Shown piece by piece: positions 1 through 51,148 of a DNA stretch of 64,000 bases (position 1 is the first letter of the stretch; every line of letters starts with the position of its first letter). The DNA comes from an uncultured Candidatus Saccharibacteria bacterium (lineage in GTDB: Bacteria > Patescibacteriota > Minisyncoccia > Phycocordibacterales > UBA2100): contig CAYNRJ010000002.1 in assembly GCA_964399865.1 (NCBI GenBank), forward strand, positions 97,108 to 161,107, written 5' to 3'. The notes under the pieces were generated by a model that had not been told where the DNA came from, ran no database searches, and worked only from the letters and a program-made list of their open reading frames with translations. A program made the position numbers and the translations under genes.

Positions 1-3000
1 CTCGCAACGATCAACTCAACCGCCATCACCGCAGGTGGTACGTTCACGATCACTGCTGCCTCCTCCACATTACTCACTGACACCAACAGATTCACAGGAG
101 GCAATGTCTTTTCAAACGCCACCTCCACCAATTTCGCCATCACAGGTATCTCTAATTCACTTCTTTCAACCAATGCAAACGGTTCGATTGTTGCAACAAC
201 ATCTCTTTCTACAAACATCCTCAATGGCACACTTAGTATCACAAACGGTGGCACTGGAACTTCAACCCCAGGAGCCTACGGTGATGTATTCACTTGGAAC
301 GGATCCAATTGGCAAGGCTTTGCAACCTCCACTCTTGGACTCGTGAAGTTCTCTGATCTCTCTATATATTCAACCTTCGGATATCCCTTCCCAAACAACG
401 CAACGACAACAGGTCTTGGTCTGTACGCTTCTACAACAATCGGCGCGGGAGGACAGGCGACAGGCTTAACTATTTCGGGAGGTGCAACAACCACGGGCAA
501 TGCATATTTTGCGGGGAGTGTTGGTATTGGGACGAATTCACCGCTCGGGGCACTGCAGGTCACTCAAGCTGCGAACTTGCCGCGGTACGGAATTGACGTT
601 GTGAGTAGCGATGACAACACGACACTCTCACTAACAAATACTGATACGGGAGGAGGGACGTGGTGGCTCGCGTCGACTGGCGGCAGTAGCTCATGGGGGC
701 AGGGAAAATTATTGTTCGGCGCCGGAGCGAATTGGCCGAGTGCGCCTGTGATGACGCTCGATTCAACTGGATACTTGGGGCTTGGCCTCACGTCGCCGGC
801 GACGAGACTCGACGTGCTTGGCACGGCAAGTTCGACGAATTTGTTTGTGAACACTACTGCCACAACGACAAATCTCGCAGTGACCGGAATCACAAGCTCA
901 CTGCTCAAAACAAACTCTCTCGGTCAGATCACCGCGGCAGTCGCCGGCACCGACTACGCAAACTTCCAATACCTCTTCCCATTGAACGCAACGACAACGG
1001 GTCTTGGTCTGTACGCTTCCACTACTATTGGTGCAGGAACTTCAGTCACGGGTCTTACAATTAGCGGAGGTGCTACGACGACAGGCAATTTGTTGGTGCA
1101 GGGAAGCGCAACCACAACGAACATTGCGGTGACTGGAACTGCCTCTTCTTCTGCTCTCATTATTTCTTCCGCAGGAGGATCTGGCACACGATGCCTCCAG
1201 GTTGGCGCTGATGGAACAGTTTCCGCAAACGGAAGCGCGTGTGGTACAGGAAGTGGAGGATTTGATTTCACGCCGACAACCTTTGGTGCAATTGCTGCCA
1301 ATTCCACCTCAACACTAATTGGGTTCTCTCAAGGCATTTTCTCTCTAGCGTCTTCTACTATTGGTGCCGGCGGACAAACAACAGGTCTCACTGTCTCAGG
1401 TGGAGCGACAACAACAGGGAATCAATACATTGGGGGAACTCTAAATGCTGGAGCAACGACGCTCTCATCTCTCACCCTCACCACTGCTCTCTCTGCAACG
1501 AATGGAGGAACTGGCCAATCGAGCTACACTACTGGAGACATTCTGTACGCTTCAGGCGCAAACACCCTTTCAAAATTACCAATAGGGAACGCGGGAGAGG
1601 TCCTTAAGATTGCGGGAGGCATTCCATCATGGGGTACAGATTTGAGTTCAGGAGGCGGCACTGGCGGCACATGGTCCACCACCACGTCTCAAGTCACAGG
1701 TACTCTCATCAACTATCCCAACAATACTTCAGACATCGTTGTAATCGGATCTACAGCAACCACATCTGCAGAATATTGGTTTGATCCAAATGCAGGAATT
1801 ACTTATCTTTCTGGCAACGTTGGTATCGGTACGGTCGCACCGCTCGCAAAAGTAACCATTGCTGACACATTGGGATCAGGCGCTCGCTATCTCGATATTG
1901 GAGATGACTCCTATCTCACGGATCTCGATACTGCAAATACGCTTGGTGTGTATGGCATTCAAGATTCAGCAATCGCATCGCTCAGATTGGGAAGTGGCGG
2001 CGGAACCATTTCAGGCGCATCGGGCAACATTGGTATCGGCGATTCGACACCAACATTCACTCTTGATGTGACGGGGAACGCTCGATTCACTTCCTTTGTT
2101 GACGCATCCCATTTTGTCGCGACGTCAACAACCAACATAAACTCATTCCCACTTCTTACTGCTACAACAGCCACGACGACAAATTTTGCAGTAACGAGCG
2201 TCACCTCTTCACTCCTCAAAACGAATTCACTCGGCCAGATCACCGCGGCAGTCGCCGGCACTGACTACACAAACTTCCAATTCCCTTGGACTGCAACAAC
2301 GTTCGGCTCCACAAATGCAAACTCAACCTCAACACTCATCGGCTTTACACAAGGAATCTACGCACTCGCTTCCTCTACTATCGGTGCAGGAGGGCAGACA
2401 ACAGGACTCACGATTTCAGGAGGGGCGACAACGACGGGGAACTTAATTGTGCAGGGAACAGGCACGTCAACCTTTGCGGGTGCGGTTGCTATTGGCAACG
2501 ACGGATCTGGCGCATACCAGGATGCAAACGATCTGGTCGTTGGTTCATTAACGGGCTCTAACGGTATCACTGTTCGTGCGGGTACTTCGGGGGTCTCAAA
2601 CGTATTCTTTGCAGACAGCGTTTCTGGCTCCGGACAATATTCGGGCATTATTTCATACAGCCATGCACTCGACAGATTCCAGATAACGACTGGATCTGCT
2701 GGGTACAGCGGCTCGCTTGGTATGTACATCACCTCTAGCGGCAACACTGCTATCGGCACAACGACCCCTTACAGCAAGCTCACTGCGTGGGGGACCGGCT
2801 CATTGTTTGAAGCAGTCACCAACGCATCGACAACAATCTTTAAGATTGGCCAGAATGGTGCAACTTCCACAAACTTCGCAATCACTGGAGTCATCTCCTC
2901 ACTCTTGAAGACTGATGCTTCTGGAAATATCGGTGCAGCAATCGCTGGTACCGATTACGCCAACTTCCAATATCTCTTCCCAAGTAACGCCACATCCACC

Positions 3001-6000
3001 ACCCTCACATTCGGTGCAGGACTTCTCTCGTCAGCATCTTCGACATTCTCTGCCAACCTAAACATCGCAACCACTTCGTCACTCCTTGCAACTAATGCAA
3101 ACGGCACCATCGTTGCAACAACATCTCTCTCAACAAACTTCCTCTCCGGCACTCTCGCAACCATCAACTCAACTGCAATCACTGCAGGAGGGACCTTCAC
3201 GATCACCGCCGCTTCTTCGACGCTTCTTGCAAACACCAACTACTGGAGCGGCGGCAACATCTTCACTAATGCAACAACAACCTCTCTATATATAGGCTCT
3301 CTTACGGGCCCGCTGCAGGCAATCGGTGGTCAGGTATCGGCAACATCCACTCTATCTATAGCGTACGGAGGCACAGGGCTCTCGACAGCTCCTTCATACG
3401 GTCAGCTACTAATGGGTAATAGCTCAGGAGCATACGCTCTCACGTCTACCTCTTCACTCGGACTCGCTTCCTTCGCATTTCCGTTTACTCCTGCAACAAG
3501 CTGGAACTCAACCTCAACTCTAATTCTCTTCTCACAGGGCATCATCGCGAATGCTTCCTCTACAATCGGAGGAGGCACTTCAGTCACTGGTCTTACTATC
3601 TCCGGCGGCGCAACGACGACAGGAAATGCCTACATCGCAGGTAATTTGGGTGTTGGTAGTAGCACTCCAAATTACAAACTCGATGTAAAGGGATTTGTAA
3701 ATGTTGATGAATTCTCTGGCTATAAGCAAGGAGGGAATACGATTCTCTATGCATCGACGACAAATAACGCGCTTGCCGTAGGTGCATCAAGCGCCGCGGC
3801 CTGGATGTCTGCTTCATCGACAGCTTGGAATAGCGTTGCAATTGGTGACGGAGCGCTCGGCACGACTCCTCTTAATGCGGGCTCTAACAATAATGTGGCG
3901 ATTGGAGCGAATTCTCTCAGAAATCTTACGACTGGCTCGAGTAATGTTGCAATAGGTAAAGACGCTCTTTACTCTGCTACTAGCGGCTCAGAAAACTTTG
4001 CACTCGGAGCGAGCGTCCTCTACTACAATAATGGCGATTATAACGTTGGTATAGGTTCAGGCGTACTCGGGTCAAATACTTCAGGTAGCTATAACATTGG
4101 CATAGGTAGGCTTTCGATGCAGTACAACACTGTTGGTGAGAATAACGTCGCGATCGGCGGTGCGACGCTTAATCAGGCAACCTCTTCAAGTAACAACACT
4201 GCGATCGGCTTTTTCGCGGGAGCTTCAATTTCCGGTGCGACAGGTGCTGTTGGTGCCGGCAACACTCTTCTTGGGCATCGAGCAGGAGGTGAGATCACTA
4301 CGGGAGGCTACAACACAATTATTGGATACTTTACGGGCTCAAACGTTACCACAGGAAGCAATAATATTCTTATCGGCCAGGATGTGCGCAGTGGACTTAG
4401 TGTGACGGCATCCGATCAGCTCAATATTGGTAATCTCCTCTTTGGTACGGGCCTTGGAAGCGGTACCACTCTTGGCACTGGGAACATTGGAATTGGTCTT
4501 GCGAACCCTGCCACCAAACTCGATGTTCTCGGCACCGCTTCCTCCACTAATCTCTTCGTCAATACAACTGCAACGACGACGAACCTCACAATCTCAGGCA
4601 TCACAAACTCACTTCTTTCTGCAAACTCTCTCGGCCAAGTGATCGCAACCTCAACGCTCTCAACGAACTACCTCTCAGGTACTCTCGCAACGATCAACTC
4701 AACAACTATCACGGCAGGCGGCACGTTCACGATCACTGCAGCATCCTCAACACTCCTTGCGAACACCAACTACTGGAGCGGCAGCAACACCTTCACCAAT
4801 GCCACCTCAACCAATTTCGCCATCACCTCGATTACTTCTTCTCTGCTAAAGACAAATTCAAGCGGTTCCATCGTTCCAGCTATTGCGGGCACTGACTATT
4901 CCAACTTCCAGTTCCCATGGACGGCGACGACATTCGGCGCGACATCGGCGAACTCAACTTCCACTCTCATCGGCTTCAACGCAGGACTCTACGCTCTCGC
5001 ATCTTCTACGATTGGCAATGGAACGCTCGGATTGACAGTGAGCGGTACTGCAACCACAACCGGCCGAGCATACTTTGGAGGGAATGTTGGCATCGGCATT
5101 GCAAATCCTGCGCACTTACTTGAGATAACTCCAACCGCTGACAACGCAAATCATTTTGTAATCAATAGTAGCAGCGGTGCGGATAGATTCCGAGTGGGGA
5201 CTGACGGGTCCGGTCACGGTTTCCTTACACTTTTTGATGGCTCAAGTAATCAAGATGTTTTGATTGGAGCAAATGGCATCTCGTACTTTAACGGCGGCAA
5301 TGTTGGTATCGGTAACAGTGCTCCGAACGAGAAGCTCAACGTCCAAGGTGCAATCGCAGGCCAAGCACTCTTTGCAACATCAAGCACGATTACTTCTGTG
5401 TTCACAGGTGGTGTGTATGTGACTGGTACGACGACTTTGGCAAACGCCACTTCAACAAATTTTGCGATTACTGCTGTCACCTCAACTCTCCTTAAAACAA
5501 ATTCGACAGGCGGAGTCATTCCCGCGATCGCAGGAACAGACTATTCAAACTTCCAGTTCCCATTCACTCCTGCTGCAAGTTGGAATTCGACTTCAACGTT
5601 GATCTTGTTCAGTAACGGTATCATTGCGAATGCTTCCTCTACTATTGGTGCGGGAGGGCAGGCGACAGGACTCACGATCTCAGGAGGCGCGACAACGACG
5701 GGGGACTTGAGAGTACAAGGAACTGCAACATCATCGTTTGCAGGAATCCTTTCCATCGGATCAACAACTCCAGCAGGAACTCCAGTCTTTTTTGTCGGAA
5801 CATCTTCGCCACTTCTTACCGTCACGAAGCCTCGTGGGTACGTTGGGATCGGAACTGCCTCTCCTACAAGCGTTCTCTACGTAAATACTCCGACAACAGA
5901 TATTGCGGCGGCGACATTCGCGAAAGCTCAGGCGGGAAGTGACACAGGCGCGTATCTCGAATTCACAGGCGCGTCAGGTGTTTCGCGTGGTTTCGTCGGC

Positions 6001-15000: not shown

Positions 15001-18000
15001 TACGATGGAAGTGCATACAACGATCTCGACTTGCGTGCTCTAGCTGGAGCAGGGTCGCAACTGTATTTGGACACAGGAGGCAACGTCGGTATCGGGACGA
15101 CAAGTCCGTCCACGTTGCTACATGTTCAAGGAGGGGTGATTAGGAGCAGTCATGCAAATGGGACATACGCTCTCGACATCGATGCTTCATCGGCAAGTGG
15201 CCCTGTGGCTACATTTGGAACTGGCTCGGACTCAGATGCGTACATGACCTTCGGGTCATATAACAGTATCAACAATCTTGATACTAAATCTCGAGATTTC
15301 CATCTGTTTTCAACGGCTGTTACCTCTGGCTTATTCTTCGAATCAAGCAATGGTAACGTTGGTATAGGCACAACCTCTCCATATGCGAAACTCTCTGTGG
15401 TCGGTCCGGTCGTCGCAGAATATTTCCACGCGACCTCAACAGCGGCGACATCAACATTCGCGGGCGGACTTTTCGTCAACAACGGTGCGATCACTCACGA
15501 CTTCTCGAGCGGCCTCACTTCAATAGACAACCTCGCCCTTGGCGCGCTCACGTTCGATACTGATGCTGGTATCGTGTCGTGGGTAGACATGCCAGTAACT
15601 TCCTCAGCGGCGGCAGGCACTGCCGAAAGCTACTCCGCTCAGATCGATGGCAACCCGCTTCTTACAATCTATGGAGAATCCAATGCTTCTGGTGGCGTGC
15701 AGAATATTGGCGTCGGTATCGGAACAACGACTCCGGGTGCGAAACTCGCAATTCAAGCCGGAGCAACAGATACATATAAAGCAAGCCTCTTCACGATAGG
15801 TAGTTCCACAAGCGCATACGCATCCTCGACACTATTTACAGTCCAGGCAACAGGAAACGTTGGCATCGGGACCTCTTCGCCGTCAACCGCACTGTACGTT
15901 CAGCACAATAACTCAAGCTCCGGAGTGCCGTCTGCTGTTGTTCAAAACACAAATACTGCAGGGAAGTCGCAGTATGCGGCCTTCAATGCAAACAGCACAG
16001 TGAGTGCGGGCTTCGGGGTTTTCAACTCAGCTATTGGGGTGTCTTCGCTTCAGGATGTTCCACACTTTTTCAGTTCCGGACAGCTTCAAATTATGTCTGA
16101 CGGAGGGACCGCCTCCGGTGGGACGAGTCCAATTATCTTTAAGGCAGGCGGGTACGATACAGCAGCAGAAGTTATGCGTATTGTTTCCGGCAAAGTCGGC
16201 ATCGGCACGACATCTCCTTGGGCGAAGCTCTCAGTCAATAATTTCACCGCGGCAGCAGGGTCAACAGCGCCACTCTTTATCGTTGCTTCTTCGACTGGAA
16301 CAGGAGCAACATCTACCGCGTTCTTTATTTCAAGTACAGGTGCAGTTGGGATAGGAACATCAACCACCGTTATTAATGGCACGGAAAGGGCGCTAGTCTT
16401 AGTCGCGAAAGGAACGACGAATGAGCTCATAGGTTTTTCTGGAAGTACGACGACAACCAAATGGCACCTTGGTCTGCAAGCGAAGGGCACAGATCTGAAT
16501 TTTGCGGAAACGGGGGTAGCGGACGGTAGATTGTACTTGCAAGCGGGAGGCAACGTCGGCATCGGTACGACATCGCCAACCGACACTCTCACGGTGGATG
16601 GCGCGGGTCGATTCACAGGTGCATATACGGAAGCAACTACGAACTTCGGTGTTCATGTCGGATACTTAGCTTCAACGCCTCGCATTCTTTTCGCAAACGG
16701 CAATTCTGCCCAGAACTGGCAGATCGATAACTCATCTGGGGACTTCAGGTGGTACACACCAGGCGTGGTGCATATGAATTTGTCCACCACAGGGGGTCTC
16801 ACACTTCCGAACACGACGAGCGGTATAATCAAGGCGAGCGGCACCGGTGATAGTTATTTCACCGGCGATCTCGGCATCGGTACTACATCACTACGTAGTG
16901 ATTCTGATCTACATATTTACAATTCAACAGGTGGAATCCTTGATCTTGAGACAAGCGATGCGGCGGTTATTTCCGGAGACGATCTCGGCACAATCCGCTT
17001 CTTTGCGACAGATGCTGGGTCTACCATCATGGCTCCGGGCGCATATATCCGCGCTGAAGCGAACGGTACATGGGGCGATACTGCGGACGTAGACGATGCT
17101 CCGACCTCGCTCCTCTTCTTTACGCAAAGCGATGGAGCAACCAACGATCTCGCCACTGCACGCATGCTCATCAACTCAAGTGGTAACGTTGGCGTTGCAT
17201 CTTCTACTCCCTGGGCGAAATTCGGCATTGAAAATACGGGATCAGACCGCTCGTTTGTCGTAGGCGACGTCGCAGGCGACCCGACCCCATTCGTCGTAGA
17301 TGCAAGCGGTAGCGTAGGCGTAGGATCATCAACTCCGTGGAGATTACTTTCGGTCGCGGGGACAGTTGCGTTCTCAGGGCTCACGTCGTCTGCAGCGGGA
17401 ACTGCAAACTTTAGTACAGTATGTCTCGCTGAACTAACCGGTGACATCGTGCAGAATGCAGATGATACATGTACGTCTTCTACTGCCACAATCAAACATG
17501 ATATTTTTGAATTAGACTTGAATGGTCTTGAGATTGTTTCTGCGATGACACCGAAGTCATATATATATAACGACGATCTCGACGAGGAAGTGTTCTGGGG
17601 ATTCATTGCAGAAGACATGGATCAAATTGATGATACGTTTGGCACCAAGTTGACTCACTATGAGAATGGGCAGCCGCGCGACTACCAGCAACGTGCCGTT
17701 CTTGCTGTCTTTACCGATGCAATACAGGAATTAAATTCTCGAACCGTGTTCGCCTCAAGTACATACGCATCCTCAACTCCTCGACTATTCGTAGATGCAA
17801 CAGGAAACATCGGGATCGGCACCACAACTCCTCAATACGATCTCCACGTTGTAGGTGATGTTGCCGCACAATCCTTTGTAAACATCTCAACCGAGAGCTC
17901 CAAGAAGAACATCAGTGAGATCGGTGAAGCAACAGAAGACCAATATCTCCAGAAACTTGAGAACATCGATCTTGTTAATTACCTCTACGTCACAGAATCA

Positions 18001-18666
18001 AGCACCTCCACCCCTCATCTAGGCCTTATTGCAGAAGACGCTCCAGCAGAAGTCCTTGCTGCAGGTGGAAAGGGCGTCGACCTCTACAAGTTCATCTCCT
18101 TCCTTACGGGTGCTTTGAAATCTCTTGCTGCTGATGTCAAAGAACTGAGCGAGAAAGTCGCAAGGTTCGCACAAGAGATCACATCGAGGAAGGTTGTCGC
18201 TACGGATACTCTCTGTGTCGGCAATACTTGTGTGACTGAAAGCCAGTTGCAGCAACTACTTGCCGGTCAGAGTGCTACGCCAACACCAGATCCTGAGGAA
18301 CCTCTTACCGGTACTGGCGGCGGTACCGACGAAGCCCCTGTCATCACTATTATCGGCGAGAGTACGATGCATATAGAAGTTGGAGCAGGGTATACAGATC
18401 AAGGAGCGCTCGTAGTAGATGATATAGATCCTAGTGTTGCGATCACCACGTTCGTCGACGGCGAACACGTCCTTTCTGTACAACTCGACACCTCATCCCC
18501 AAGAACATACGAAATAAAATATCGCGCAGTAGATTCAGCAGAGAATGTTACTGAGGCACTACGCACTGTCGAGGTCACGGAGCCAGTGGTGTCGGAATCA
18601 GACGCTGACGGTGAATCAATCCCAGACATTGGAACTAACTCCGAAGAGTCTGATACAGAGGTATGA
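1..18666 (+). CDS. giant repetitive surface fibre/adhesin-like protein, 5'-partial. The reading frame is open from window position 1, so the ORF-track GTG at 343 is internal and the true length exceeds 6,200 aa.
   Basis: Frame 1 translation of 1-342 (LATINSTAITAGGTFTITAASSTLL...) continues the same repeat family seen internally. The protein is extremely Gly/Thr/Ser/Ala-rich. About 25 copies of a ~120-aa repeat are present (motifs SLLKT, AGTDY, GGATTTGN, NVGIGTTSP-AKL). No stop codon occurs for 18.6 kb. Confidence 0.85.
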   Translation, partial: LATINSTAITAGGTFTITAASSTLLTDTNRFTGGNVFSNATSTNFAITGISNSLLSTNANGSIVATTSLSTNILNGTLSITNGGTGTSTPGAYGDVFTWNGSNWQGFATSTLGLVKFSDLSIYSTFGYPFPNNATTTGLGLYASTTIGAGGQATGLTISGGATTTGNAYFAGSVGIGTNSPLGALQVTQAANLPRYGIDVVSSDDNTTLSLTNTDTGGGTWWLASTGGSSSWGQGKLLFGAGANWPSAPVMTLDSTGYLGLGLTSPATRLDVLGTASSTNLFVNTTATTTNLAVTGITSSLLKTNSLGQITAAVAGTDYANFQYLFPLNATTTGLGLYASTTIGAGTSVTGLTISGGATTTGNLLVQGSATTTNIAVTGTASSSALIISSAGGSGTRCLQVGADGTVSANGSACGTGSGGFDFTPTTFGAIAANSTSTLIGFSQGIFSLASSTIGAGGQTTGLTVSGGATTTGNQYIGGTLNAGATTLSSLTLTTALSATNGGTGQSSYTTGDILYASGANTLSKLPIGNAGEVLKIAGGIPSWGTDLSSGGGTGGTWSTTTSQVTGTLINYPNNTSDIVVIGSTATTSAEYWFDPNAGITYLSGNVGIGTVAPLAKVTIADTLGSGARYLDIGDDSYLTDLDTANTLGVYGIQDSAIASLRLGSGGGTISGASGNIGIGDSTPTFTLDVTGNARFTSFVDASHFVATSTTNINSFPLLTATTATTTNFAVTSVTSSLLKTNSLGQITAAVAGTDYTNFQFPWTATTFGSTNANSTSTLIGFTQGIYALASSTIGAGGQTTGLTISGGATTTGNLIVQGTGTSTFAGAVAIGNDGSGAYQDANDLVVGSLTGSNGITVRAGTSGVSNVFFADSVSGSGQYSGIISYSHALDRFQITTGSAGYSGSLGMYITSSGNTAIGTTTPYSKLTAWGTGSLFEAVTNASTTIFKIGQNGATSTNFAITGVISSLLKTDASGNIGAAIAGTDYANFQYLFPSNATSTTLTFGAGLLSSASSTFSANLNIATTSSLLATNANGTIVATTSLSTNFLSGTLATINSTAITAGGTFTITAASSTLLANTNYWSGGNIFTNATTTSLYIGSLTGPLQAIGGQVSATSTLSIAYGGTGLSTAPSYGQLLMGNSSGAYALTSTSSLGLASFAFPFTPATSWNSTSTLILFSQGIIANASSTIGGGTSVTGLTISGGATTTGNAYIAGNLGVGSSTPNYKLDVKGFVNVDEFSGYKQGGNTILYASTTNNALAVGASSAAAWMSASSTAWNSVAIGDGALGTTPLNAGSNNNVAIGANSLRNLTTGSSNVAIGKDALYSATSGSENFALGASVLYYNNGDYNVGIGSGVLGSNTSGSYNIGIGRLSMQYNTVGENNVAIGGATLNQATSSSNNTAIGFFAGASISGATGAVGAGNTLLGHRAGGEITTGGYNTIIGYFTGSNVTTGSNNILIGQDVRSGLSVTASDQLNIGNLLFGTGLGSGTTLGTGNIGIGLANPATKLDVLGTASSTNLFVNTTATTTNLTISGITNSLLSANSLGQVIATSTLSTNYLSGTLATINSTTITAGGTFTITAASSTLLANTNYWSGSNTFTNATSTNFAITSITSSLLKTNSSGSIVPAIAGTDYSNFQFPWTATTFGATSANSTSTLIGFNAGLYALASSTIGNGTLGLTVSGTATTTGRAYFGGNVGIGIANPAHLLEITPTADNANHFVINSSSGADRFRVGTDGSGHGFLTLFDGSSNQDVLIGANGISYFNGGNVGIGNSAPNEKLNVQGAIAGQALFATSSTITSVFTGGVYVTGTTTLANATSTNFAITAVTSTLLKTNSTGGVIPAIAGTDYSNFQFPFTPAASWNSTSTLILFSNGIIANASSTIGAGGQATGLTISGGATTTGDLRVQGTATSSFAGILSIGSTTPAGTPVFFVGTSSPLLTVTKPRGYVGIGTASPTSVLYVNTPTTDIAAATFAKAQAGSDTGAYLEFTGASGVSRGFVGFTKHGGGSDTFFTGETADALAIRAEAAFQLGVGDLISMTAIDNGNIGIGDVSPASLFTVGANDAFQVNSSGVVAAATGITSSGNITFSGLSAGGVGVTGTGLLYSFSTSTWTFASSTLLSDTNRWTGGNVFSNATSTNFAITAVTSSLLKTNANGSIVPAIAGTDYVAGSSFFQFPWTATTFGSTAANSTSTLIGFTQGIYALASSTIGAGGQTTGLTISGGATTTGNAYFAGRVGIGTASPVTDLEVSRTYGKIARFYATAQTGIYLDVANDNNKGGYIGHSLPSMTSSVGTVNSGLWLSSYDGSNPGGTIKLATADTDQISFITGTTPVSRMSITSAGKVGIGTTSPVAQLTVATQNGANGSINKLFLVASSTASATTTLFSIDNTGLVSYTTLNGGPATTTALAITGVTSSLLKTDSAGNVLAAVAGTDYSNFGFPFTPSASWNSTSTLILFSQGIIANASSTIGAGGQATGLTISGGATTTGDLSVQGTATSSFIGVLSIGSTTPSGNALFSIGTSTPLIVVDKRTGNVGIGTSAPGATLDIFKASGTGLRIGQSGNYFISLGSSGIVSSRGAGAFVINSDHGINFQEDSTTVFSIADGAPANILSISSTGNVGVGTTSPYAKLSVVGEAVAAYFTATTTTNINTFPLLTSTTATTTNLAVTGVTSSLLKTNSLGQVTAAVAGADYANFQYLFPSNATTTALGLYASTTIGDGSQVGGLTISGGASTTRDFYFGTGAQVDFHDEIADKLYLYSNTYGIGIEASTLTNWSGTQFRWRVGGTSVTTGSERMLLTGSGLTVTGSATTSSNLVVQGNATTTNLAITGVTSSLLKTDASGNVLAAVAGTDYANFGYLFPVDGYATTTGLGIFASTTIGDGSQAGGLTVSGNATTSGRLFVGNSIGSVNTASANGPRAINLIDTSAVMRVWRYAATTTTNNPAIELIQGTNTNGSSADNTWWDMFTSADGGTPDSERFSIRRRTGGSNGVFFSIHSSGNVGIGNNVPSEKLNVQGAIAGQGLFATSSAMTSVFTGGLTVSGTTTLASATSTNFAITNLTSTLLKTNSDGSVVAAVAGTDYATPGQASFPFTPSASWNSTSTLILFSQGIIANASSTIGAGGQGTGLTISGGATTTGHSYFAGSLGISTTTFNSAQFSLQATSSNATLATLYSSTGSTKLFDATVVSDVPLFTFGKKAGTKLTQYTQVEFTDENGNNSDWSFRVAGNSYPIINLGSSGGTLASPSNVSPPTEYSNKISGLILGHGYINSAWRDTSGISFGYDATPSGSAYSSNITFLTTSGTTITERMRLSTAGNLGIGNNSPTEKLNVQGIAQAQAFNATSTAFTSQLLGGLIVSGTTTLANATSTNLSVSGTASTTALIVSGAGGAAGCATFAADGTISNTGSACGTGGGTFSWTATTFGSIAANSTSTLIGFTQGIYALASSTIGDGTQTGGLTISGGATTTGQLTVSGTATSSIAGTLSLGSTTPIGSNSRLFIQSPSSGSAFRIARATSAGSFIDVSLSSSGNTAATTITDGGSNTLTVAAGSAGISLNDANASPVKIHTATALNTSSFTVGSGTTTFVGGRVGVGTSSPFAKFSIHAPSSGTYFSTIFAVASSSLAATTTVFSVDGLGATTTNFAISNVTSSLLKTTATGAVIPAVAGTDYATPGQASFPFTPAVAWNATSTLILFSQGIIANASSTIGDGTQAGGLTINGGATTTRNLVLTGTAANLVLGSNYLSGDGGDEGIFVDSSGYVGIGTTTPPSKLSVQSGGGTNAILVTNSGNGSNSTALHVNSNGSGTFYAYDLDANLTALYSNEAARLASGGLYLWTNSATDASGGGTPDTSFSRLSAGKIGVGTGAANEIDGTLIAGSIGIGTTSPYAKLSVVGETVAAYFTATTTTNINTFPLLTATTATTTNLAVTGITSSLLKTNSLGQLTAAVAGTDYATPGQASFPFTPAVAWNATSTLILFSQGIIANASSTIGAGGQTTGLTISGGATTTGNLFVTGSGTSTFANYLGIGTTSPWGNGLLTVGTSTPLLYVDKTNGYVGMGTTTPTAQLQVGEQVAVPFASGLNTSLVKFGREIIDSGSVDQETAVLQVGSNIRSTGNTGEIHASMYTEMETNALSYGNFTNSLLGHSINIVHRATTTVANFQALDPDIQLVAGAGSVTNAMGVDIDVSPQAGYTGTVTNAYAIKADIDNVSGATITNAYGLRLGFTNGGTLTNGYGVYLTDVPATNSYGIYQAGTNDLNYFGGNVGVGTTSPFAKLSVHGDTLGTYNSTLFAVASSSLSATTTIFSVDQLGATTTNFAISNVASSLLKTTATGAVIPAVAGTDYATPGQASFPFTPAVAWNATSTLILFSQGIIANASSTIGAGGQTTGLTISGGATTTADLVVGGGTLNISNQTFSSEQTYSRLLNRTVVQHYQNSSNNYVRNLDIVAAGYDRQSVIRFLNQTRNTSDPVETVRINESGNLGVGTTSPFAKLSVHGDTLGTYNSTLFAVASSSLSATTTIFSVDQLGATTTNFAISNVASSLLKTTATGAVIPAVAGTDYANFSYLFPVNGYATTTGLGIFASTTIGAGGQTTGLTISGGATTTGNLFVTGSGTSTFSNFLAIGTSSPWGNGLLNVGTSSPRLYVDNTSGYVGIGTTTPSYPLTVAGSSALIYNETGSAYLNLKSGVNGDNAINAGINFQGADGTDFAISYDRRGCCTPGLNFWSYIAGEYKEVFSVGLNNGLILNRFPGTPYPGNVSMQTGSTSAAILTVDGGGSSGAAVKGLVVQGASSQTANLQEWQNSSGVVLAAVTAAGNFGIGNGNVSPNEKLNVQGAIAGQALFATSSTMTSVFTGGVYVTGTTTLANATSTNFAVTGTASTTALIVSNAGGTAGCATFSSIGLLSNTGSACGGSGSAFPFTPTTFGATSANSTSTLIGFTQGIYALASSTIGNGTLTGGLTISGGATTTDNLYVGGYLEVVDSGTLANFNDGSDGINFQVSGGVAGIIGYDGSAYNDLDLRALAGAGSQLYLDTGGNVGIGTTSPSTLLHVQGGVIRSSHANGTYALDIDASSASGPVATFGTGSDSDAYMTFGSYNSINNLDTKSRDFHLFSTAVTSGLFFESSNGNVGIGTTSPYAKLSVVGPVVAEYFHATSTAATSTFAGGLFVNNGAITHDFSSGLTSIDNLALGALTFDTDAGIVSWVDMPVTSSAAAGTAESYSAQIDGNPLLTIYGESNASGGVQNIGVGIGTTTPGAKLAIQAGATDTYKASLFTIGSSTSAYASSTLFTVQATGNVGIGTSSPSTALYVQHNNSSSGVPSAVVQNTNTAGKSQYAAFNANSTVSAGFGVFNSAIGVSSLQDVPHFFSSGQLQIMSDGGTASGGTSPIIFKAGGYDTAAEVMRIVSGKVGIGTTSPWAKLSVNNFTAAAGSTAPLFIVASSTGTGATSTAFFISSTGAVGIGTSTTVINGTERALVLVAKGTTNELIGFSGSTTTTKWHLGLQAKGTDLNFAETGVADGRLYLQAGGNVGIGTTSPTDTLTVDGAGRFTGAYTEATTNFGVHVGYLASTPRILFANGNSAQNWQIDNSSGDFRWYTPGVVHMNLSTTGGLTLPNTTSGIIKASGTGDSYFTGDLGIGTTSLRSDSDLHIYNSTGGILDLETSDAAVISGDDLGTIRFFATDAGSTIMAPGAYIRAEANGTWGDTADVDDAPTSLLFFTQSDGATNDLATARMLINSSGNVGVASSTPWAKFGIENTGSDRSFVVGDVAGDPTPFVVDASGSVGVGSSTPWRLLSVAGTVAFSGLTSSAAGTANFSTVCLAELTGDIVQNADDTCTSSTATIKHDIFELDLNGLEIVSAMTPKSYIYNDDLDEEVFWGFIAEDMDQIDDTFGTKLTHYENGQPRDYQQRAVLAVFTDAIQELNSRTVFASSTYASSTPRLFVDATGNIGIGTTTPQYDLHVVGDVAAQSFVNISTESSKKNISEIGEATEDQYLQKLENIDLVNYLYVTESSTSTPHLGLIAEDAPAEVLAAGGKGVDLYKFISFLTGALKSLAADVKELSEKVARFAQEITSRKVVATDTLCVGNTCVTESQLQQLLAGQSATPTPDPEEPLTGTGGGTDEAPVITIIGESTMHIEVGAGYTDQGALVVDDIDPSVAITTFVDGEHVLSVQLDTSSPRTYEIKYRAVDSAENVTEALRTVEVTEPVVSESDADGESIPDIGTNSEESDTEV
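3750..4450 (+). repeat. Hep_Hag / YadA-head-like short beta-roll repeats inside the giant gene (NNVAIG, SNVAIGKDAL, YNVGIGSGVLG, NNTAIGFFAG, NNILIGQDV)
   Basis: Recurrent N-x-(A/V)-(I/L)-G-x-x-(A/S)-L heptad-like motifs, typical of trimeric adhesin heads and phage tail-fibre repeats. Confidence 0.6.
10981..13760 (+). repeat. nested, nearly identical intragenic direct repeats. A ~120-nt unit occurs at about 10981, 11827 and 12997. A ~207-nt unit is identical at about 12779-12985 and 13434-13640.
   Basis: Identical nucleotide strings were read directly. They are mirrored by identical antisense ORF-track peptides (12753..13001 equals 13362..13652; 11835..12038 is almost identical to 13005..13208 and 10989..11180). 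Confidence 0.85.
17473..18060 (+). other. two tandem peptidase-S74 / intramolecular-chaperone-like (tail-fibre auto-processing) modules in the C-terminal region of the giant protein
   Basis: TSSTATIKHDIFELDLNGLEIVSAMTPKSYIYNDDLDEEVFWGFIAEDMDQI and STESSKKNISEIGEATEDQYLQKLENIDLVNYLYV...HLGLIAEDAPAEVL match the S-D-x-R-L-K-x-N-I ... Y-x-Y ... G-F-I-A-Q-E pattern of the endosialidase chaperone domain. An Ig-like module (PVITIIGESTMHIEVGAGYTDQGALVVDD...) follows. Confidence 0.6.
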
Positions 18667-19652
18667 TTACTTCGATGCGCACCAAAAGGATAGTAAGAAT
18701 TCTTGTTAAGACTGGACTCCTCCTCGCGATCGGTGTGAGTATCGGTATATATGTGGCAAAGGGTAAGGGAATTGATGAGTGTGGCAAAGCATATACATTC
18801 CTGAATCAAAGCGCGATTTGCGCCGAGCAAGTGATCTCGAAGACTGCGTACACGAAGACCCAGCGCGAGATCAGTCAATATGTCGAAACTGCACGATTGA
18901 CCGGAAAGGCAAAGGAGGTAAGTGTATATTTTCGTGATTTGAATAATGGCCCCGTATTTGGACTTAATGAACTGGACGAATTTGTCCCTGCATCACTCCT
19001 GAAGTTACCGCTTGCCTTCGTGTACCTTACGGTTGCAGAAATACAACCTGGATTACTCGCTCAACGAATTCAATATACAGCCGCCGATACTACAGCAGTG
19101 CAGTATTTCAAGGGCATTCAAACGGTCCATGCCGGGGAAGAGCATACAGTGGAAGAGCTATTGGAGCTCATGCTGACGTATTCTGACAATAATGCGCAAG
19201 AACTGCTGTCGAGCTATTTAGAGACCGACTCGAGCGCCATCGATGTTCGTGCGGAAATATTCAACGAACTTGGTCTTACGGATCCCGAGACCGCAATGGA
19301 AGAAAGTTTGAGCGTACGCGGATACGCAGCACTTTTCCGTCTGTTATATAACGCATCTTTCTTAAATGCCGAACAGTCGGAAAAAGTCTTGGGATGGCTG
19401 TCGCGCTCGGATTTTAAAGAGGGGCTCACAGCAGGAGTACCCGAGGGCATTATCGTTGCTCATAAATTCGGGGAACGCTCGGCAATGGATTCAGATGAAC
19501 GACAGTTACACGATTGCGGCATCGTCTACTATCCCGAAAATCCGTATCTGTTGTGCATTATGACAAAGGGCGACAATTGGGAAGAGCTTGCGAAGGTGAT
19601 TGCCGATATTTCCCGTACGATATTTGAAGAAGTGAATTCACGTAGGATATGA
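18663..19652 (+). CDS. serine hydrolase with class A beta-lactamase / DD-peptidase fold, N-terminal membrane anchor
   Basis: Motifs S-x-x-K (PASLLKLP), SDN (YSDNNA) and a K-T-G-like motif (VAHKFGE) are present. The start overlaps the giant gene stop (ATGA). Confidence 0.7.
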   Translation: MITSMRTKRIVRILVKTGLLLAIGVSIGIYVAKGKGIDECGKAYTFLNQSAICAEQVISKTAYTKTQREISQYVETARLTGKAKEVSVYFRDLNNGPVFGLNELDEFVPASLLKLPLAFVYLTVAEIQPGLLAQRIQYTAADTTAVQYFKGIQTVHAGEEHTVEELLELMLTYSDNNAQELLSSYLETDSSAIDVRAEIFNELGLTDPETAMEESLSVRGYAALFRLLYNASFLNAEQSEKVLGWLSRSDFKEGLTAGVPEGIIVAHKFGERSAMDSDERQLHDCGIVYYPENPYLLCIMTKGDNWEELAKVIADISRTIFEEVNSRRI

Positions 19653-21760
19653 GAAAGCACGATCTCAATGCAGTGGCGGCAATACTATTTATAGGTGCAA
19701 TTTTTCTTGCGCCGCAGTTTGCGGATGCGGGTGTTATCGGCCGACCGGCGAATAATCTCGGTCTCATAGGGTATTGGAGTTTTAATGAAGGAACAACGAC
19801 CAGCGTCGGAGATTTCAGTGGTTTTGGAAACACGGGCACCGCGTCTACCTCTATGTGGACCTCGGGTAGAAGAGGTACGGCGCTCAACTTCAATGGTACC
19901 AACCAGTACGCGACAATGTCGACTTTCAATCAATCTCTTTTACCTGCCACTTTTGTGTCATGGGTATACGTACCGACGGCAGCCGACCTGCAGGCATGCC
20001 GGGGGGTCGTCTTCTCGAGAGGCACGAGCGTGTCAGGTATTAACGTAGGAGCATGCTCTGCTTCGACGAAGCTCGGGTATCACTGGAATGGTGCTGCGAA
20101 TACATGGGGGTGGACTGGAGGACCTCCCGTTCCTATCGGCGAATGGTTCCTTGCAGCGCTTGTTGTTGAATCTAGTCAGGCAACGATGTATGCAATAACC
20201 GCAAGTGGGGCAACTTCGACTGCAAATGGAGTCGCCCACACTGCTTCGACGATAAATGACCTCAAGATTGGCGTTGATGAAACGTTGGATCGTTATTTTG
20301 AAGGAAAGATAGATGAGGCGCGTATTTATAATCGTGCATTAACCCAGGCAGAATTGCAGGTGTTGTATCAATCTGGAGCTGCCGTTCTCAATAAATCTCA
20401 TACTTCCGTCGCGGAGGGTCTTGTCGGATGGTGGACCATGGATGGTCAGGAGATGTCTATGAATATCGGGGACAAAAGTGGTAATGGGAATAACGGGTAT
20501 CTCGTTAACGCGCCGACGTCAACAGCTCAGATTGTCGGCAAAATTGGTTCCGCGCTCTCCTTTGATGGAATAGATGACTATGTGATCGTGAACGATAGTG
20601 ACAGCTTAGATACAGCAAACGGCCTAACGGTCTCAGCGTGGATATACGATAGTAATGATGGACAGCAACGCCACTCGATAAATAAAGACAACACCTCGCA
20701 AAGAAATTGGATAATCAGGCGTCAAACGGATACCACAGGTAATTACCACATGTGGAATTCCGGGGGTACTTTGCGTCAGTTTGTGCCCGCGAACAGTTGG
20801 AAAATTAATGAATGGTTCCACGTGGTGTTTACGGCTGCTGTTAGTGGGTCAACGATTAATCTTGAGGTGTTCATTAACGGAGTTTCTGTCGGAACAGATT
20901 CATTCGCAGGTACGGCTCTGCAAACGGGTACTTCGCGGATGCATATGGGCATAGACGCGCCCGGCGGTAGTGAAAAACGCCAACGTCTTGACGACGTACG
21001 TGTGTACAATCGAGCGGTTTCTGCAGCGGAGGCGAAACAAATATATAACGAAAGCGCCGGAGCTAAAATAAACGTGAGTACGGCAACAGGATCTTTAAAT
21101 GACGGACTTGTCGGATATTGGTCATTCAACGGTCCAGATGTCACAGATACAGCAATCTACGATCGTTCTCCGAGCGGGGTCAATAGTTATTTTGTTAATA
21201 GTGCAACATCAACGGCAAAAACTCCGGGGGTCATAGGACAAGCGCTCAATTTTAATGGCGTTAACAATTTTGCATCGCTGCTCACAGACTTCAGCGAGCC
21301 GTCGAATCTCACTCTTTCTATATGGTTTAAGACCACCTCTACCGCTTCAAAGAATGCACTTTTCGGTCAGGCGAATGTGCAACCGCCAACCGGGGCGAGC
21401 TCATTCGTGCCGCCGCTATGGGTATTGTCTGACGGAAGAGTGCGAGCAGAACTTTGGACCGGAGGCGCGGGGCAAATTTATTCATCAAGTGGCTACAACG
21501 ACGGGCATTGGCACATGGCCACTCTCGTTGCCACGACGACAATGCAATCTTTGTATGTGGATGGAGAATATGTCGGAAGTAGATCCGGTACTCTTAGTCA
21601 GAGCTGGTGGGTGTCCTCAACTATCGGCGCTGCGTATGTGAACTCCCGTGAGAGTCAGAGTGGGTGGGGCTACTTCAATGGATCGATAGATGAAGTGAGA
21701 TTCTATAACCGCGCACTGAGCGCTGCGGAGATTAAGCGACTCTACAATACAGGACAATGA
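19649..21760 (+). CDS. secreted protein with three LamG / concanavalin-A-like lectin domains
   Basis: Signal peptide MRKHDLNAVAAILFIGAIFLAPQFADA. Three repeats end in the LamG_3 signature (IDEARIYNRALTQAELQVLY, LDDVRVYNRAVSAAEAKQIY, IDEVRFYNRALSAAEIKRLY). The start overlaps the upstream stop (ATGA). Confidence 0.75.
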   Translation: MRKHDLNAVAAILFIGAIFLAPQFADAGVIGRPANNLGLIGYWSFNEGTTTSVGDFSGFGNTGTASTSMWTSGRRGTALNFNGTNQYATMSTFNQSLLPATFVSWVYVPTAADLQACRGVVFSRGTSVSGINVGACSASTKLGYHWNGAANTWGWTGGPPVPIGEWFLAALVVESSQATMYAITASGATSTANGVAHTASTINDLKIGVDETLDRYFEGKIDEARIYNRALTQAELQVLYQSGAAVLNKSHTSVAEGLVGWWTMDGQEMSMNIGDKSGNGNNGYLVNAPTSTAQIVGKIGSALSFDGIDDYVIVNDSDSLDTANGLTVSAWIYDSNDGQQRHSINKDNTSQRNWIIRRQTDTTGNYHMWNSGGTLRQFVPANSWKINEWFHVVFTAAVSGSTINLEVFINGVSVGTDSFAGTALQTGTSRMHMGIDAPGGSEKRQRLDDVRVYNRAVSAAEAKQIYNESAGAKINVSTATGSLNDGLVGYWSFNGPDVTDTAIYDRSPSGVNSYFVNSATSTAKTPGVIGQALNFNGVNNFASLLTDFSEPSNLTLSIWFKTTSTASKNALFGQANVQPPTGASSFVPPLWVLSDGRVRAELWTGGAGQIYSSSGYNDGHWHMATLVATTTMQSLYVDGEYVGSRSGTLSQSWWVSSTIGAAYVNSRESQSGWGYFNGSIDEVRFYNRALSAAEIKRLYNTGQ

Positions 21761-22311
21761 GACCAGTACTGTTCATTATTGTTTTGCTCATAGTGGGCAC
21801 TGCCACGGTGTTTTTCATTTCGTCGCGCCAGAGTGTGGTTGTGGGAAATACTCTGACTTTTGAACCGAAAGTTGCTGAGCGGCCGATTGTGCAACCGAAG
21901 CCGGATAGTTCCGGCGTATCGACCTATAAAGATTCAGATTATGGCTTCATACTCACATATCCTCCTGAGTACAAGGTAGCGAAGATAAAAAATGAGGAAG
22001 CGGACACATTTCTGCTCCAAGACAGCACTGGAACGGGAATGCAAATAATTGTAAGTCCATTTGATGAACCTGCGGAGGCTTTCACTGTCGCACGCGTGCG
22101 ACAAGATTTGCCGGACCTCCCGATGCGAAATGTGCGGATCGCAAAAATGCCACTTGCCGGTATAGAAGGTATTCTGTTCGAGAGTTCCGGCGGGGGGTTT
22201 GGGGGGAGTGTCGAATTCTGGTTTGTACATAAGGGTTATTTATATCAGGCGAGCACATACCTAAGCCAAATGAGCCTTTTTGAGGATGTGATGGGTACAA
22301 TCCGATTCTGA
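21757..22311 (+). CDS. small N-terminally membrane-anchored hypothetical protein
   Basis: ORF with ATGA overlap to the LamG gene. N-terminal TM segment (VLFIIVLLIVGTATVFFI). Confidence 0.55.
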   Translation: MRPVLFIIVLLIVGTATVFFISSRQSVVVGNTLTFEPKVAERPIVQPKPDSSGVSTYKDSDYGFILTYPPEYKVAKIKNEEADTFLLQDSTGTGMQIIVSPFDEPAEAFTVARVRQDLPDLPMRNVRIAKMPLAGIEGILFESSGGGFGGSVEFWFVHKGYLYQASTYLSQMSLFEDVMGTIRF

Positions 22312-22366: not shown

Positions 22367-23371
22367 ATGATTCGCGTTGCCATAAACGGATTTGGAAGAA
22401 TTGGCAGAGCGTTCCTTCGTTCAGCTCATGGAAGAAAAGAAATTAAAGTTGTTGCAGTAAATGACCTCACGAGTCCTGAAAATCTCGCCTACCTCCTCAA
22501 ATACGACACTGTGTATGGGGGCGCCCCTTTCTCTGTCGACGTAAAAGGAAGGTCGCTCATCATTGATGGTAAGGAAGTGCCAGTCATTTCAGAACGAGAT
22601 CCAGCGAAGTTACCTTGGGGTGAACATAAGGTAGATGTTGTCATTGAATCCACTGGTTTTTTCACTGACGCAGAGAAAGCGAAAGCTCATATCCAGGCGG
22701 GCGCGAAGCGTGTTGTCATAAGTGCGCCTGGAAAAGGGGAACTCGATACGGTTCTCATCGGGGCAAACGAAGATAAATTCAAAACCTGCGGCGAAGTGAC
22801 ATCAAACGCTTCATGCACAACAAACGCCGCCTCACCTCTCATTGGTATTTTAAGTGAAGCGCTTGGAATCGAGCGAGCGCTTCTCAACACAACACATGCA
22901 TACACCGCTTCACAAAGTATTGTTGATGGTCCCGCAGAAGATGATTTTCGACGCGGACGTGCGGGCGCAGCAAATCTCGGGCCGTCCTCAACAGGAGCAG
23001 CAAAGGCAACGACATTGGCGTACCCGGAATTAAAAGGGAAGTTCGATGGTATCTCAGTGCGCGTTCCAGTTCCCGCGGGCTCCATAGTTGATATTACGTT
23101 TGTTCCAAAAAGACCAACGACAGCGGAAGAGGTGAATGACATTCTCCGCAAAGCCGCTTTTTCAGCCAAATGGAAGCGTGTATTTGCGGTGACAGAAGAA
23201 CCCCTCGTGTCATCGGATATTCTCGGACTTCCGTTTGGAGCCATAGCAGATCTCGCAATGACACGTGTTGTTGATGGAACACTCGTAAAAGTGCTCGCGT
23301 GGTATGACAATGAAATGGGGTACGCGCACACACTCGTTGAGCACACGATAGAAGTCGGCAAGAACATCTAG
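22367..23371 (+). CDS. gap: glyceraldehyde-3-phosphate dehydrogenase (type I)
   Basis: NGFGRIGR NAD-binding motif, catalytic SCTTNA motif, full-length at 334 aa. Confidence 0.95.
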   Translation: MIRVAINGFGRIGRAFLRSAHGRKEIKVVAVNDLTSPENLAYLLKYDTVYGGAPFSVDVKGRSLIIDGKEVPVISERDPAKLPWGEHKVDVVIESTGFFTDAEKAKAHIQAGAKRVVISAPGKGELDTVLIGANEDKFKTCGEVTSNASCTTNAASPLIGILSEALGIERALLNTTHAYTASQSIVDGPAEDDFRRGRAGAANLGPSSTGAAKATTLAYPELKGKFDGISVRVPVPAGSIVDITFVPKRPTTAEEVNDILRKAAFSAKWKRVFAVTEEPLVSSDILGLPFGAIADLAMTRVVDGTLVKVLAWYDNEMGYAHTLVEHTIEVGKNI

Positions 23372-27420: not shown

Positions 27421-27852
27421 ATGCAAGCTAATCAGATAGCAGGAGGATTCTTTCTCGTATTTGAACGTGGCGAAGATTTTATTCCACTCCTTACCGCATT
27501 TTGCGAAGAGCAGGAAGTGCACTGGGCGACGTTCCAAGCGGTCGGCGCCGTTGAAGACGTAGAGATAGGGTATTACGACCTCGAAGCGCAGGAATATTTT
27601 TTCCGCAGTGAAAAAGGTCCATTCGAGGTCGCGACGATGACAGGAAACGTAGCAGAAATAAACGAAGGTCCGTTTGTCCACGCGCACGCGGTGTTATCGA
27701 GATGTGATGCAACATTGGAATGTCTTGGAGGGCATCTTAAATCAGCACGAGTAGCGGTTACGTTGGAGCTGTCGCTGTGGCGTGTAAGCCAGCCGCTTCT
27801 TCGTAGATTCGATGAGGACACAGGGCTCAATTTAATTACGCTTACCCTATGA
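27421..27852 (+). CDS. PPC (DUF296) domain protein
   Basis: GPFEVATMTGNV ... HAHAVLSRCD ... GGHL pattern typical of DUF296. It lies between the two transketolase halves and overlaps the downstream start (ATGA). Confidence 0.65.
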   Translation: MQANQIAGGFFLVFERGEDFIPLLTAFCEEQEVHWATFQAVGAVEDVEIGYYDLEAQEYFFRSEKGPFEVATMTGNVAEINEGPFVHAHAVLSRCDATLECLGGHLKSARVAVTLELSLWRVSQPLLRRFDEDTGLNLITLTL

Positions 27853-51145: not shown

Positions 51146-51148
51146 ATC

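Follow-up and report, generated by a model that had tools for sequence, protein, structure and literature searches.

Introduction

The Candidate Phyla Radiation (CPR), also known as Patescibacteria, constitutes a large and almost uncultured share of bacterial diversity, whose members live attached to other cells. To our knowledge, the building and anchoring of their attachment structures is largely unknown beyond the type IV pili. Several envelope machines possess dedicated peptidoglycan hydrolases, such as FlgJ in flagella, the L,D-endopeptidase TagX in the type VI secretion system, and the lytic transglycosylases of the VirB1/EtgA type. Here, we analyze a stretch of 64,000 nucleotides from an uncultured patescibacterial genome (assembly GCA_964399865.1, contig CAYNRJ010000002.1, positions 97,108 to 161,107; hereafter the window), in which the 3' end of a gene for a giant tail-fibre-like protein adjoins a gene for a 329-residue membrane-anchored serine hydrolase, which we term HYD. 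These are followed by genes for a secreted protein with three LamG domains and a small anchored protein of 184 residues. We find that the juxtaposition of HYD with giant fibre genes recurs across species, and that the LamG and 184-residue proteins form a second, separable pair.

All four of these proteins are of known folds or families. The giant protein resembles the tail fibres and tailspikes of phages, of the endosialidase K1F and T5 pb1 type, in possessing Peptidase_S74 domains with a Ser and a Lys at the putative dyad positions and in matching tail-fibre families of PHROG. However, its gene is chromosomal, lies beside core metabolic genes outside of a prophage and codes for more than 6,000 residues; and whereas the phage fibres have a terminal S74 domain, it has two tandem copies, after which come a coiled segment and then an Ig-like domain. 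Giant proteins annotated as 'tail fiber' or 'DUF5011 domain-containing' are already present in Parcubacteria records, and homologues of the window's protein bear such names in Kaiserbacteria, Niyogibacteria and Pacebacteria. HYD, in turn, shares the fold, the first two catalytic motifs and membership in PF13354 with the class A beta-lactamases (BlaMab, 4yfm; PER-1; TEM), and the class A fold with SxxK, SDN and KxG motifs with PBP-A (Tll2115; PDB 2j7v and 2j9o) of the cyanobacterial DD-peptidases. The domain of the 184-residue protein resembles the fold of the PsbP/Mog1-like envelope proteins (PsbP, CyanoP, DcrB, LpqN and Tsi3). Full-text literature searching recovered no published description of a linkage between the fibre and HYD, and a preprint on giant genes (10.1101/2023.11.21.568195) makes no mention of a lactamase or a tail fibre.

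Results

HYD genes recur at the 3' ends of giant fibre genes

In the window, frame 1 of the forward strand is open from base 1; thus, the giant open reading frame (ORF; 1..18666) has at least 6,221 codons with its 5' end outside the window, and the GTG at 343, listed in the ORF table, is not the start of the gene. The HYD gene (18663..19652, same strand; an alternative start is Met5 at 18675) overlaps the stop of the giant gene with its start codon. We aligned 26 members of the HYD family, with 42-53% identity to the window protein, and used this alignment to fetch 80 loci from GTDB species-representative genomes. Neighbours were assigned to the giant family if they fell in the BLAST cluster of the window giant or were at least 1,000 residues long. 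Counted as raw loci, a giant-family gene lies immediately upstream of HYD on the same strand in 32/80, immediately downstream in convergent orientation in 6/80, and within three genes in 46/80. A directly adjacent giant is missing from 42 loci, 13 of which reach less than 1.5 kb upstream of HYD, and direct adjacency is hence seen in 38/67 testable species-level loci. Contigs often stop just upstream of HYD, as would happen where assembly is interrupted by a repetitive giant gene.

The association shows a strong dependence on position. With the giant family here defined as proteins of at least 1,000 residues with more than 42% Thr, Gly, Ser and Ala, its share is 32/73 (44%) at position -1, 9/76 (12%) at +1 and 2/251 (~1%) across positions +2 to +6. 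When the testable loci are split into terciles by HYD score, beginning with those nearest to the window HYD, 16/22, 12/22 and 10/23 show adjacency. In a second sample of 45 loci, from metagenome contigs that extend 1.5 kb or more upstream and overlapping in part with the first sample (L112 equals L022, L145 equals L083), nine upstream and three convergent giants give 12/45 that are directly adjacent; with six more nearby, 18/45 have a giant within three genes. Taxon labels of the metagenome-assembled genomes (MAGs) are unreliable; several loci bear the name 'Gammaproteobacteria' or 'Nitrospirae' and yet probably belong to CPR contigs. The linkage persists while the other neighbours vary, including in the convergent arrangement, in which the two genes are not co-transcribed. 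These variable neighbours include a ~160-residue anchored protein accompanied by surface proteins of the WxLIP-like, cohesin and dockerin types, Gly-rich giants, and the LamG and 184-residue families, with a ~680-residue polytopic protein with C-terminal tetratricopeptide repeats (TPRs) and a family 2 glycosyltransferase (GT2) seen at 16 HYD loci. The constant element among the loci is thus HYD beside the 3' end of a giant fibre gene.

These figures bear on an alternative account, under which HYD would be a housekeeping low-molecular-weight penicillin-binding protein (PBP), that is, a DD-carboxypeptidase with no fibre-specific role, and its adjacency to the giants would stem from a general clustering of envelope genes combined with giant genes acting as hot spots of variable islands. 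The fold and motif evidence, presented below, would suit such an enzyme just as well; moreover, about half of the HYD loci are without a giant neighbour, the closest relatives of the window's fibre are without an adjacent HYD, and the neighbours of HYD are mostly envelope or surface genes. Nevertheless, this account does not predict so steep a fall from position -1 to positions further downstream, or that adjacency to the giant 3' end should be kept in both orientations and through the turnover of other neighbours; the linkage of the genes speaks against a role in housekeeping alone, as it does against one in resistance. Class-A-like matches are also patchy across CPR genomes, with only ~1,600 reported in 4,062 CPR genomes (27.9% of 5,759) (PMC8651080), a point weakened by the incompleteness of MAGs. 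Hence, we consider a housekeeping PBP a possible but rather unlikely explanation.

Two further arrangements were observed among the HYD loci. One, which is absent from the window, runs from the giant fibre through HYD to the ~680-residue polytopic TPR protein, followed in about half of the cases by a ~255-residue GT2 glycosyltransferase (L018, L024, L025, L034, L041, L052, L055, L061, L074 and others); this order of genes suggests glycosylation of the Ser/Thr-rich fibre in those lineages. In the other, found in Levyibacteriota-like MAGs or MAGs mislabelled 'Gammaproteobacteria', HYD is convergent to the 3' end of a giant of more than 3,000 residues and is tandemly duplicated in L015, L031, L047 and L051, with a single copy in L033.

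HYD is a membrane-tethered serine enzyme with a class A beta-lactamase/PBP-A fold

An earlier note on this DNA had read HYD as a serine hydrolase of the class A beta-lactamase/DD-peptidase fold, and had proposed a check for a catalytic Ser-x-x-Lys upon alignment. Both the identity and the motif are borne out. HYD matches the full length of PF13354 (Beta-lactamase2; model positions 1-214 of 214) with 129 bits against a threshold of 22 (E 2e-37), and Ser111-Leu-Leu-Lys114 (nt 18993-19004) is invariant in the 26-sequence alignment and aligns with the SxxK of 3cjm, 4yfm and PBP-A. Equally invariant in these sequences are Ser174-Asp175-Asn176 of the SDN motif (nt 19182-19190), Lys268-Phe269-Gly270 (nt 19464-19472), in which a Phe takes the place of the Thr/Ser in the class A motif Lys234-Thr/Ser-Gly236, and Glu202 (nt 19266-19268) in the omega-loop region. 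The alignments disagree on the residue at the class A Glu166 position, which corresponds to Glu202 with BlaMab (4yfm), to a position next to Asp207-Pro208 with PBP-A and to Glu209 with PER-1. An AlphaFold2 (AF2) model of HYD (mean pLDDT 87.7) displays a long N-terminal helix, and a Foldseek search with this model retrieved PBP-A (Tll2115) chains at all of ranks 1-11 (E ~1e-17; TM-score on the target 0.74-0.78). Likewise, an hmmsearch of the profile against proteins of solved structure placed PBP-A at ranks 1-2 (E 3e-16).

A hydrophobic segment is present at the N-terminus of all 26 family members; in the window protein the transmembrane (TM) anchor spans residues ~17-33 (nt 18711-18761), looks uncleaved and is separated from the catalytic domain by only a short linker. 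The cysteine pairs Cys40/Cys53 and Cys285/Cys298 are invariant across the same sequences, and together with the N-terminal helix they fit an extracytoplasmic, membrane-tethered enzyme. We conclude that HYD is such an enzyme, with a serine active site in the class A beta-lactamase/PBP-A fold, and that it stands outside the curated beta-lactamase family. PBP-A acts as a DD-carboxy/endopeptidase of peptidoglycan on muropeptides (PMC11189452); our best guess from this relationship is that HYD, too, would have a peptidoglycan-directed, penicillin-binding-type activity. HYD differs from PBP-A, with which it shares ~20-23% identity, in its N-terminal anchor, two invariant Cys pairs, KFG in place of KTG and invariant Glu202; furthermore, its family spans the CPR and is linked to genes for giant fibres.

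Could HYD instead be a genuine class A beta-lactamase providing antibiotic resistance? It retains SxxK, SDN and KxG along with the invariant Glu of the omega-loop region, and class-A-like genes of CPR genomes have been listed as resistance-like (PMC8651080). However, against the NCBIfam model for the class (NF033103, bla_class_A) HYD scores 84.1 bits, below the curated cutoff of 200, which rules out bona fide membership, and against all named class A subfamilies it reaches at most 42 bits where the cutoffs are 320-685. Further, unlike these enzymes, it has Phe in place of the Thr/Ser of the KTG motif, its nearest solved relative is a PBP rather than a lactamase, and both its membrane anchor and its linkage to fibre genes are unexpected for a resistance enzyme. 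In light of these features, a role in resistance appears very improbable.

The anchor also bears on the direction in which HYD might act. CPR bacteria are typically episymbionts (PMC6744442), the fibre and the lectin-like LamG protein are plausible adhesins, and PBP-A can damage a foreign (E. coli) sacculus through its DD-endopeptidase activity (PMC11189452), raising the idea, in line with the note's speculation on adhesion coupled to peptidoglycan remodelling at a contact site, that HYD is secreted or exposed and attacks the wall of the host or prey at a contact site formed by the fibre and LamG protein. However, the conserved anchor and short linker would keep HYD at the membrane of the producer, far from a wall held off by a fibre of more than 6,000 residues, which makes action on a distant host wall less likely; moreover, most HYD loci are without a LamG gene. 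We accordingly hold an attack on the host wall to be improbable.

The giant protein and its variable C-terminal modules

The protein encoded by the giant ORF has Thr at 15%, Gly at 14%, Ser at 12% and Ala at 11% and contains 18 'GNVGIGT'-like motifs and 12 copies of 'GLTISGGATTTG'; Tandem Repeats Finder detected no tandem repeats at the DNA level in the gene. Its matches to PHROG tail-fibre families (phrog_9942, E 1e-28) are complemented at the C-terminus by two stretches of Peptidase_S74 (PF13884; 50.5 bits where the cutoff is 22, best at residues 5829-5878), a domain that acts as an intramolecular chaperone of the endosialidase type. The first copy lies at 17479..17634, with Ser5827 and Lys5832 in STATIK, and the second at 17887..18060 (approximate limits), with Ser5963 and Lys5968 in STESSKKNI, both on the forward strand. 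The Ser and Lys thus have the S-x-x-x-x-K spacing in both copies, with the dyad assigned by inspection against what we take to be the SDxRxK motif of the family; autocleavage is a prediction. A Bact_surface_Ig-like domain (DUF5011, PF16403; 44 bits where the cutoff is 27) follows at 18343..18576 of the same strand, and then an acidic tail. The same terminal Ig-like domain is found in the HYD-adjacent giants of L004, L007 and L013. In other species, complete homologues of the giant have a Sec-type signal peptide at the N-terminus, along with a conserved N-terminal domain, on the basis of which we take the giant fibre to be exported by Sec. On the whole, 'fibre' is a fair description of this protein.

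Most HYD-adjacent giants are without Peptidase_S74 and instead have a conserved C-terminal module of the form '...DLAEWYE...GDVV...ALAGRVPVKV...GD.LT.S..PG.AMKATKAG...' (L004, L005, L009, L013, L021, L024, L025, L035, L041, L055, L061 and L074). It is often followed by 'FGRPYF...FSWIALAVK', and neither element has a Pfam match. Possibly, the DLAEWYE element represents a module for maturation or chaperoning that is still undescribed.

The C-termini also bear on a further alternative, in which the substrate of HYD would be the fibre itself. HYD might catalyse sorting of a DD-transpeptidase type, passing a stem peptide from the acyl-enzyme to an amine of the fibre and thereby anchoring it to the wall, or it might process the fibre as a peptidase or esterase. 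Such a role would fit the tight linkage to the 3' end of the fibre genes and a fold that is common to acyl-transferring DD-peptidases. It would also provide for the retention of fibres that have a signal peptide and no recognisable anchor: no TM-like segment was found in the at least 6,221 residues present in the window, and there is no LPXTG-like C-terminus. However, the giants beside HYD did not display a conserved motif in common, at the C-terminus or elsewhere, which argues against direct recognition of the fibre by HYD, and hydrolysis is favoured by the acidic residue that is invariant in the omega-loop region. We know of no precedent for fibre-transfer chemistry in the class A/PBP-A fold, which likewise speaks against it. 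An action of HYD on the fibre hence seems a poor prospect.

The LamG and PsbP-like proteins form a separate pair

The note cited above had joined four genes by three ATGA overlaps into a single translationally coupled, functional unit, comprising the fibre, the hydrolase, a secreted protein with three LamG domains and a small membrane protein. The overlaps are exactly where it had placed them, at 18663..18666 between the giant fibre and HYD (gtATGAtt), 19649..19652 between HYD and LamG (atATGAga) and 21757..21760 between LamG and the 184-residue gene (caATGAga), all on the forward strand; in each, the upstream TGA stop shares letters with the downstream ATG across 4 nt. Such overlaps are an ordinary feature of operons, and a fourth is present in the window at 27849, within the transketolase genes. 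The identity of the LamG protein (19649..21760, forward strand; 703 residues) was also well judged: behind a signal-peptide-like N-terminus (residues 1-27, ...QFADA|G), it matches Laminin_G_3 in three stretches (191 bits against 27.6, E 1e-56), with LamG/ConA-like domains at approximately nt 19763-20356, 20420-21034 and 21107-21733 of the forward strand by their repeat landmarks. TafC, a haloarchaeal subunit of Tat fimbriae (PMC11821415), was considered as an identity for it and rejected, with 81 bits against a cutoff of 410 for NF052521 and the LamG region alone in common.

The small membrane protein (21757..22311, forward strand) is membrane-anchored, as had been claimed; it is a single-pass protein with a folded domain rather than a polytopic one. 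Its only hydrophobic helix is N-terminal (residues 4-22), and residues ~50-184 (nt 21904-22308) form an alpha/beta domain of ~135 residues in the AF2 model (pLDDT ~90). The starts of both this gene and the LamG gene are fixed by their N-terminal signal or anchor sequences. Searches of the 184-residue protein against Pfam and NCBIfam gave no match, including to PsbP_2 (PF18933), for which a homologue falls below the threshold (23.4 bits against a cutoff of 27). With Foldseek, the best matches of the domain are PsbP and CyanoP (E 5e-5 to 5e-4, probability 1.00, TM-score 0.45-0.54), and weaker ones are Tsi3, DcrB and LpqN. An exhaustive profile search recovered 3,039 cluster representatives of the family at E<=1e-3, nearly all of 165-250 residues. 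Judging by the modelled fold, we assign the protein to a widespread, unannotated family of single-pass anchored proteins with a predicted PsbP fold. It differs from the described PsbP/Mog1-like proteins in its N-terminal anchor, in being without above-threshold family membership and in belonging to a CPR family encoded beside large secreted proteins.

The proposed unity of the four genes, for which the note had named a lack of conserved synteny in relatives as refuting, did not survive comparison with related loci. Among the inspected closest relatives of the C-terminus of the window's fibre, with its S74 and Ig-like domains (L092-L095), L092 has a fibre of 606 residues, LamG, GAPDH, rpiB, rpe and tkt and is without HYD or the 184-residue gene, whereas L094 runs from the fibre through a GIY-YIG gene to GAPDH and onward without HYD, LamG or the 184-residue gene; in L093 and L095, unrelated genes surround the fibre. 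L088, in turn, has LamG, the 184-residue gene, GAPDH and rpiB. Thus, L092, L094 and L088 keep the flanks of the window's locus and miss one to three of its genes, indicating that the locus from the fibre to the GAPDH/pentose-phosphate genes is kept in the lineage while HYD, LamG and the 184-residue gene come and go independently. Across the 80 HYD loci, LamG and/or the 184-residue family are nearby in only ~8-10. These loci, together with L088 and L092-L095, rule out a conserved four-gene operon. The LamG gene, for its part, adjoins the 184-residue family in the window, L073, L086, L087 and L088, with L086 showing a 184-residue paralogue on one side of LamG and a 184-residue gene on the other, and it is nearby in L059, L065 and L071. 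The genes of the window therefore comprise two separable pairs, namely the giant fibre with HYD and LamG with the 184-residue protein, and their four-gene arrangement brings these two smaller units side by side in a lineage-specific manner.

Genomic setting of the locus

Downstream of these genes on the forward strand lies GAPDH (22367..23371; Pfam), which stands outside the module and is the first gene of a conserved block of GAPDH, ribose-5-phosphate isomerase B (rpiB), ribulose-phosphate epimerase (rpe) and a split transketolase (Pfam); the same block is found downstream in L088, L092 and L094. Further downstream are gyrB, RF-1 and DNA polymerase III alpha. GAPDH marks the edge of a variable surface-gene island: the left third of the window is a variable cell-surface island of a CPR/Patescibacteria (Parcubacteria-like) bacterium, located upstream of the conserved GAPDH/pentose-phosphate operon. 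Scans for promoter and terminator consensus sequences between 17.5 and 29 kb gave counts at the shuffled background and did not separate the module from the GAPDH/pentose-phosphate genes, and all genes as far as 28841 are on the same strand; hence, sequence signals do not fix 22311 as the 3' boundary of the module. The relatives of HYD bear labels such as Kaiserbacteria, Paceibacterota and Parcubacteria, and its nearest non-identical homologue shares only ~50% identity; identical proteins are also present on a few short read-assembly contigs, and samples with this exact locus include SRR14271366 and SRR13076587. A prophage origin was considered, as both the fibre and LamG genes have PHROG matches, and rejected in view of flanks formed by core metabolic genes and a HYD without meaningful phage matches; the locus is a chromosomal CPR/Patescibacteria region. 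The only RNA element found in a scan of the window is a tRNA-Thr at 36666.

Several other features of the window merit mention. Downstream of the module, at a distance of 9 kb, a 451-residue protein with an SLT_2 lytic-transglycosylase domain is encoded (30948-32303, +), which makes a further candidate for wall remodelling. Between GAPDH and rpiB is a gene (23424-25403, +) for a 659-residue secreted protein with a signal peptide, 4-5 Cys-rich repeats of ~45 residues ('C..G.LSGS....C.V') and no Pfam match; it is found at this position in this genome only, whereas L088, L092 and L094 run directly from GAPDH toward rpiB. Between the halves of the split transketolase is an ORF of 143 residues (27421-27852, +), whose end takes part in the ATGA overlap at 27849. 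The equivalent position in relatives holds an unrelated small gene, coding for 130 residues in L092 and for a 171-residue NYN-domain protein in L094. In the latter (L094:5959-11151), two GIY-YIG, two 23S_rRNA_IVP and NYN genes are interleaved between nearly all genes of the GAPDH-rpiB-rpe-transketolase operon, as if small selfish or accessory genes had invaded it again and again. Finally, the window contains an 836-residue, highly charged (Lys/Glu-rich) protein (47090-49600, +) and a 384-residue protein that has, between a signal peptide and a TM helix at the C-terminus, ~20 'YNKP(T/V)TSY'-type repeats in tandem (53300-54454, +), both without Pfam matches. Between these two is a stretch (49900-52650) with a GC content of 0.59 as against ~0.50 elsewhere; it has long overlapping ORFs on both strands with no Pfam matches, no clear repeats and an ambiguous coding strand, and it may be foreign DNA.

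Discussion

The reading that we favour, if tentatively and short of calling it probable, is that HYD would act as a DD-peptidase on the producer's own peptidoglycan in the service of the fibre, with the LamG and PsbP-like proteins as a separate pair. Under this model, the giant fibre, with its at least 6,221 residues and the two S74 chaperone domains and Ig-like domain at its C-terminus, would be exported via Sec, and HYD would be tethered by its N-terminal helix at the outer face of the cytoplasmic membrane. There it could function as a low-molecular-weight PBP-type DD-peptidase, with carboxypeptidase and/or endopeptidase activity, which would locally open or trim the producer's own wall to let the giant fibre cross it and be seated. 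The secreted, lectin-like triple-LamG protein would probably be held or chaperoned at the surface by the anchored PsbP-fold protein.

This role of HYD would have parallels in the hydrolases of envelope machines, such as FlgJ, TagX and the VirB1/EtgA-type enzymes, which, as we suggest for HYD, are wall-cleaving enzymes encoded beside the structure that they help through the wall. There are differences, however: HYD belongs to the beta-lactamase-fold class of DD-peptidases, its partner would be one giant fibre and not a machine of many proteins, and the dependence of the fibre upon it is read from gene linkage alone. We also consider a still more specialized version, specific to CPR appendage biogenesis, in which HYD would be a dedicated wall-gating enzyme or might even attach the fibre to peptidoglycan in the manner of a sortase; this we regard as doubtful.

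Several points weigh against the favoured model. The substrate proposed for HYD is taken from its nearest characterised relative, at the low identity noted above, and Glu202 might support a deacylation like that of beta-lactamases. Roughly half of the HYD genes are without a giant neighbour, and the C-termini of the giants that do adjoin HYD vary between the S74 and Ig-like domains of the window and, in most others, the unannotated 'DLAEWYE...AGRVPVKV' module; such heterogeneity leaves no common docking element. In addition, a tblastn search confirmed the absence of HYD from the L092-L095 loci, giving 0/4 with HYD beside the fibre, which means that such fibres do not all need a neighbouring HYD and that the association is one-sided. 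Lastly, the adjacency figures ignore kinship among the loci, and the genes of the related loci were called heuristically, as stop-to-stop ORFs chosen by greedy selection and clustered with BLAST, rather than with a gene finder.

The recurrent link between giant fibres and a PBP-A-like peptidase offers a concrete, testable hypothesis for the biogenesis of such fibres. It also cautions against counting class-A-like genes of this kind as determinants of antibiotic resistance, as is done in surveys of the CPR 'resistome'. If true, the appendage-biogenesis reading would imply a new role for the beta-lactamase fold, and it would offer a way into the question of how ultra-small episymbionts assemble the structures that attach them to their hosts, where these involve fibres of several thousand residues.

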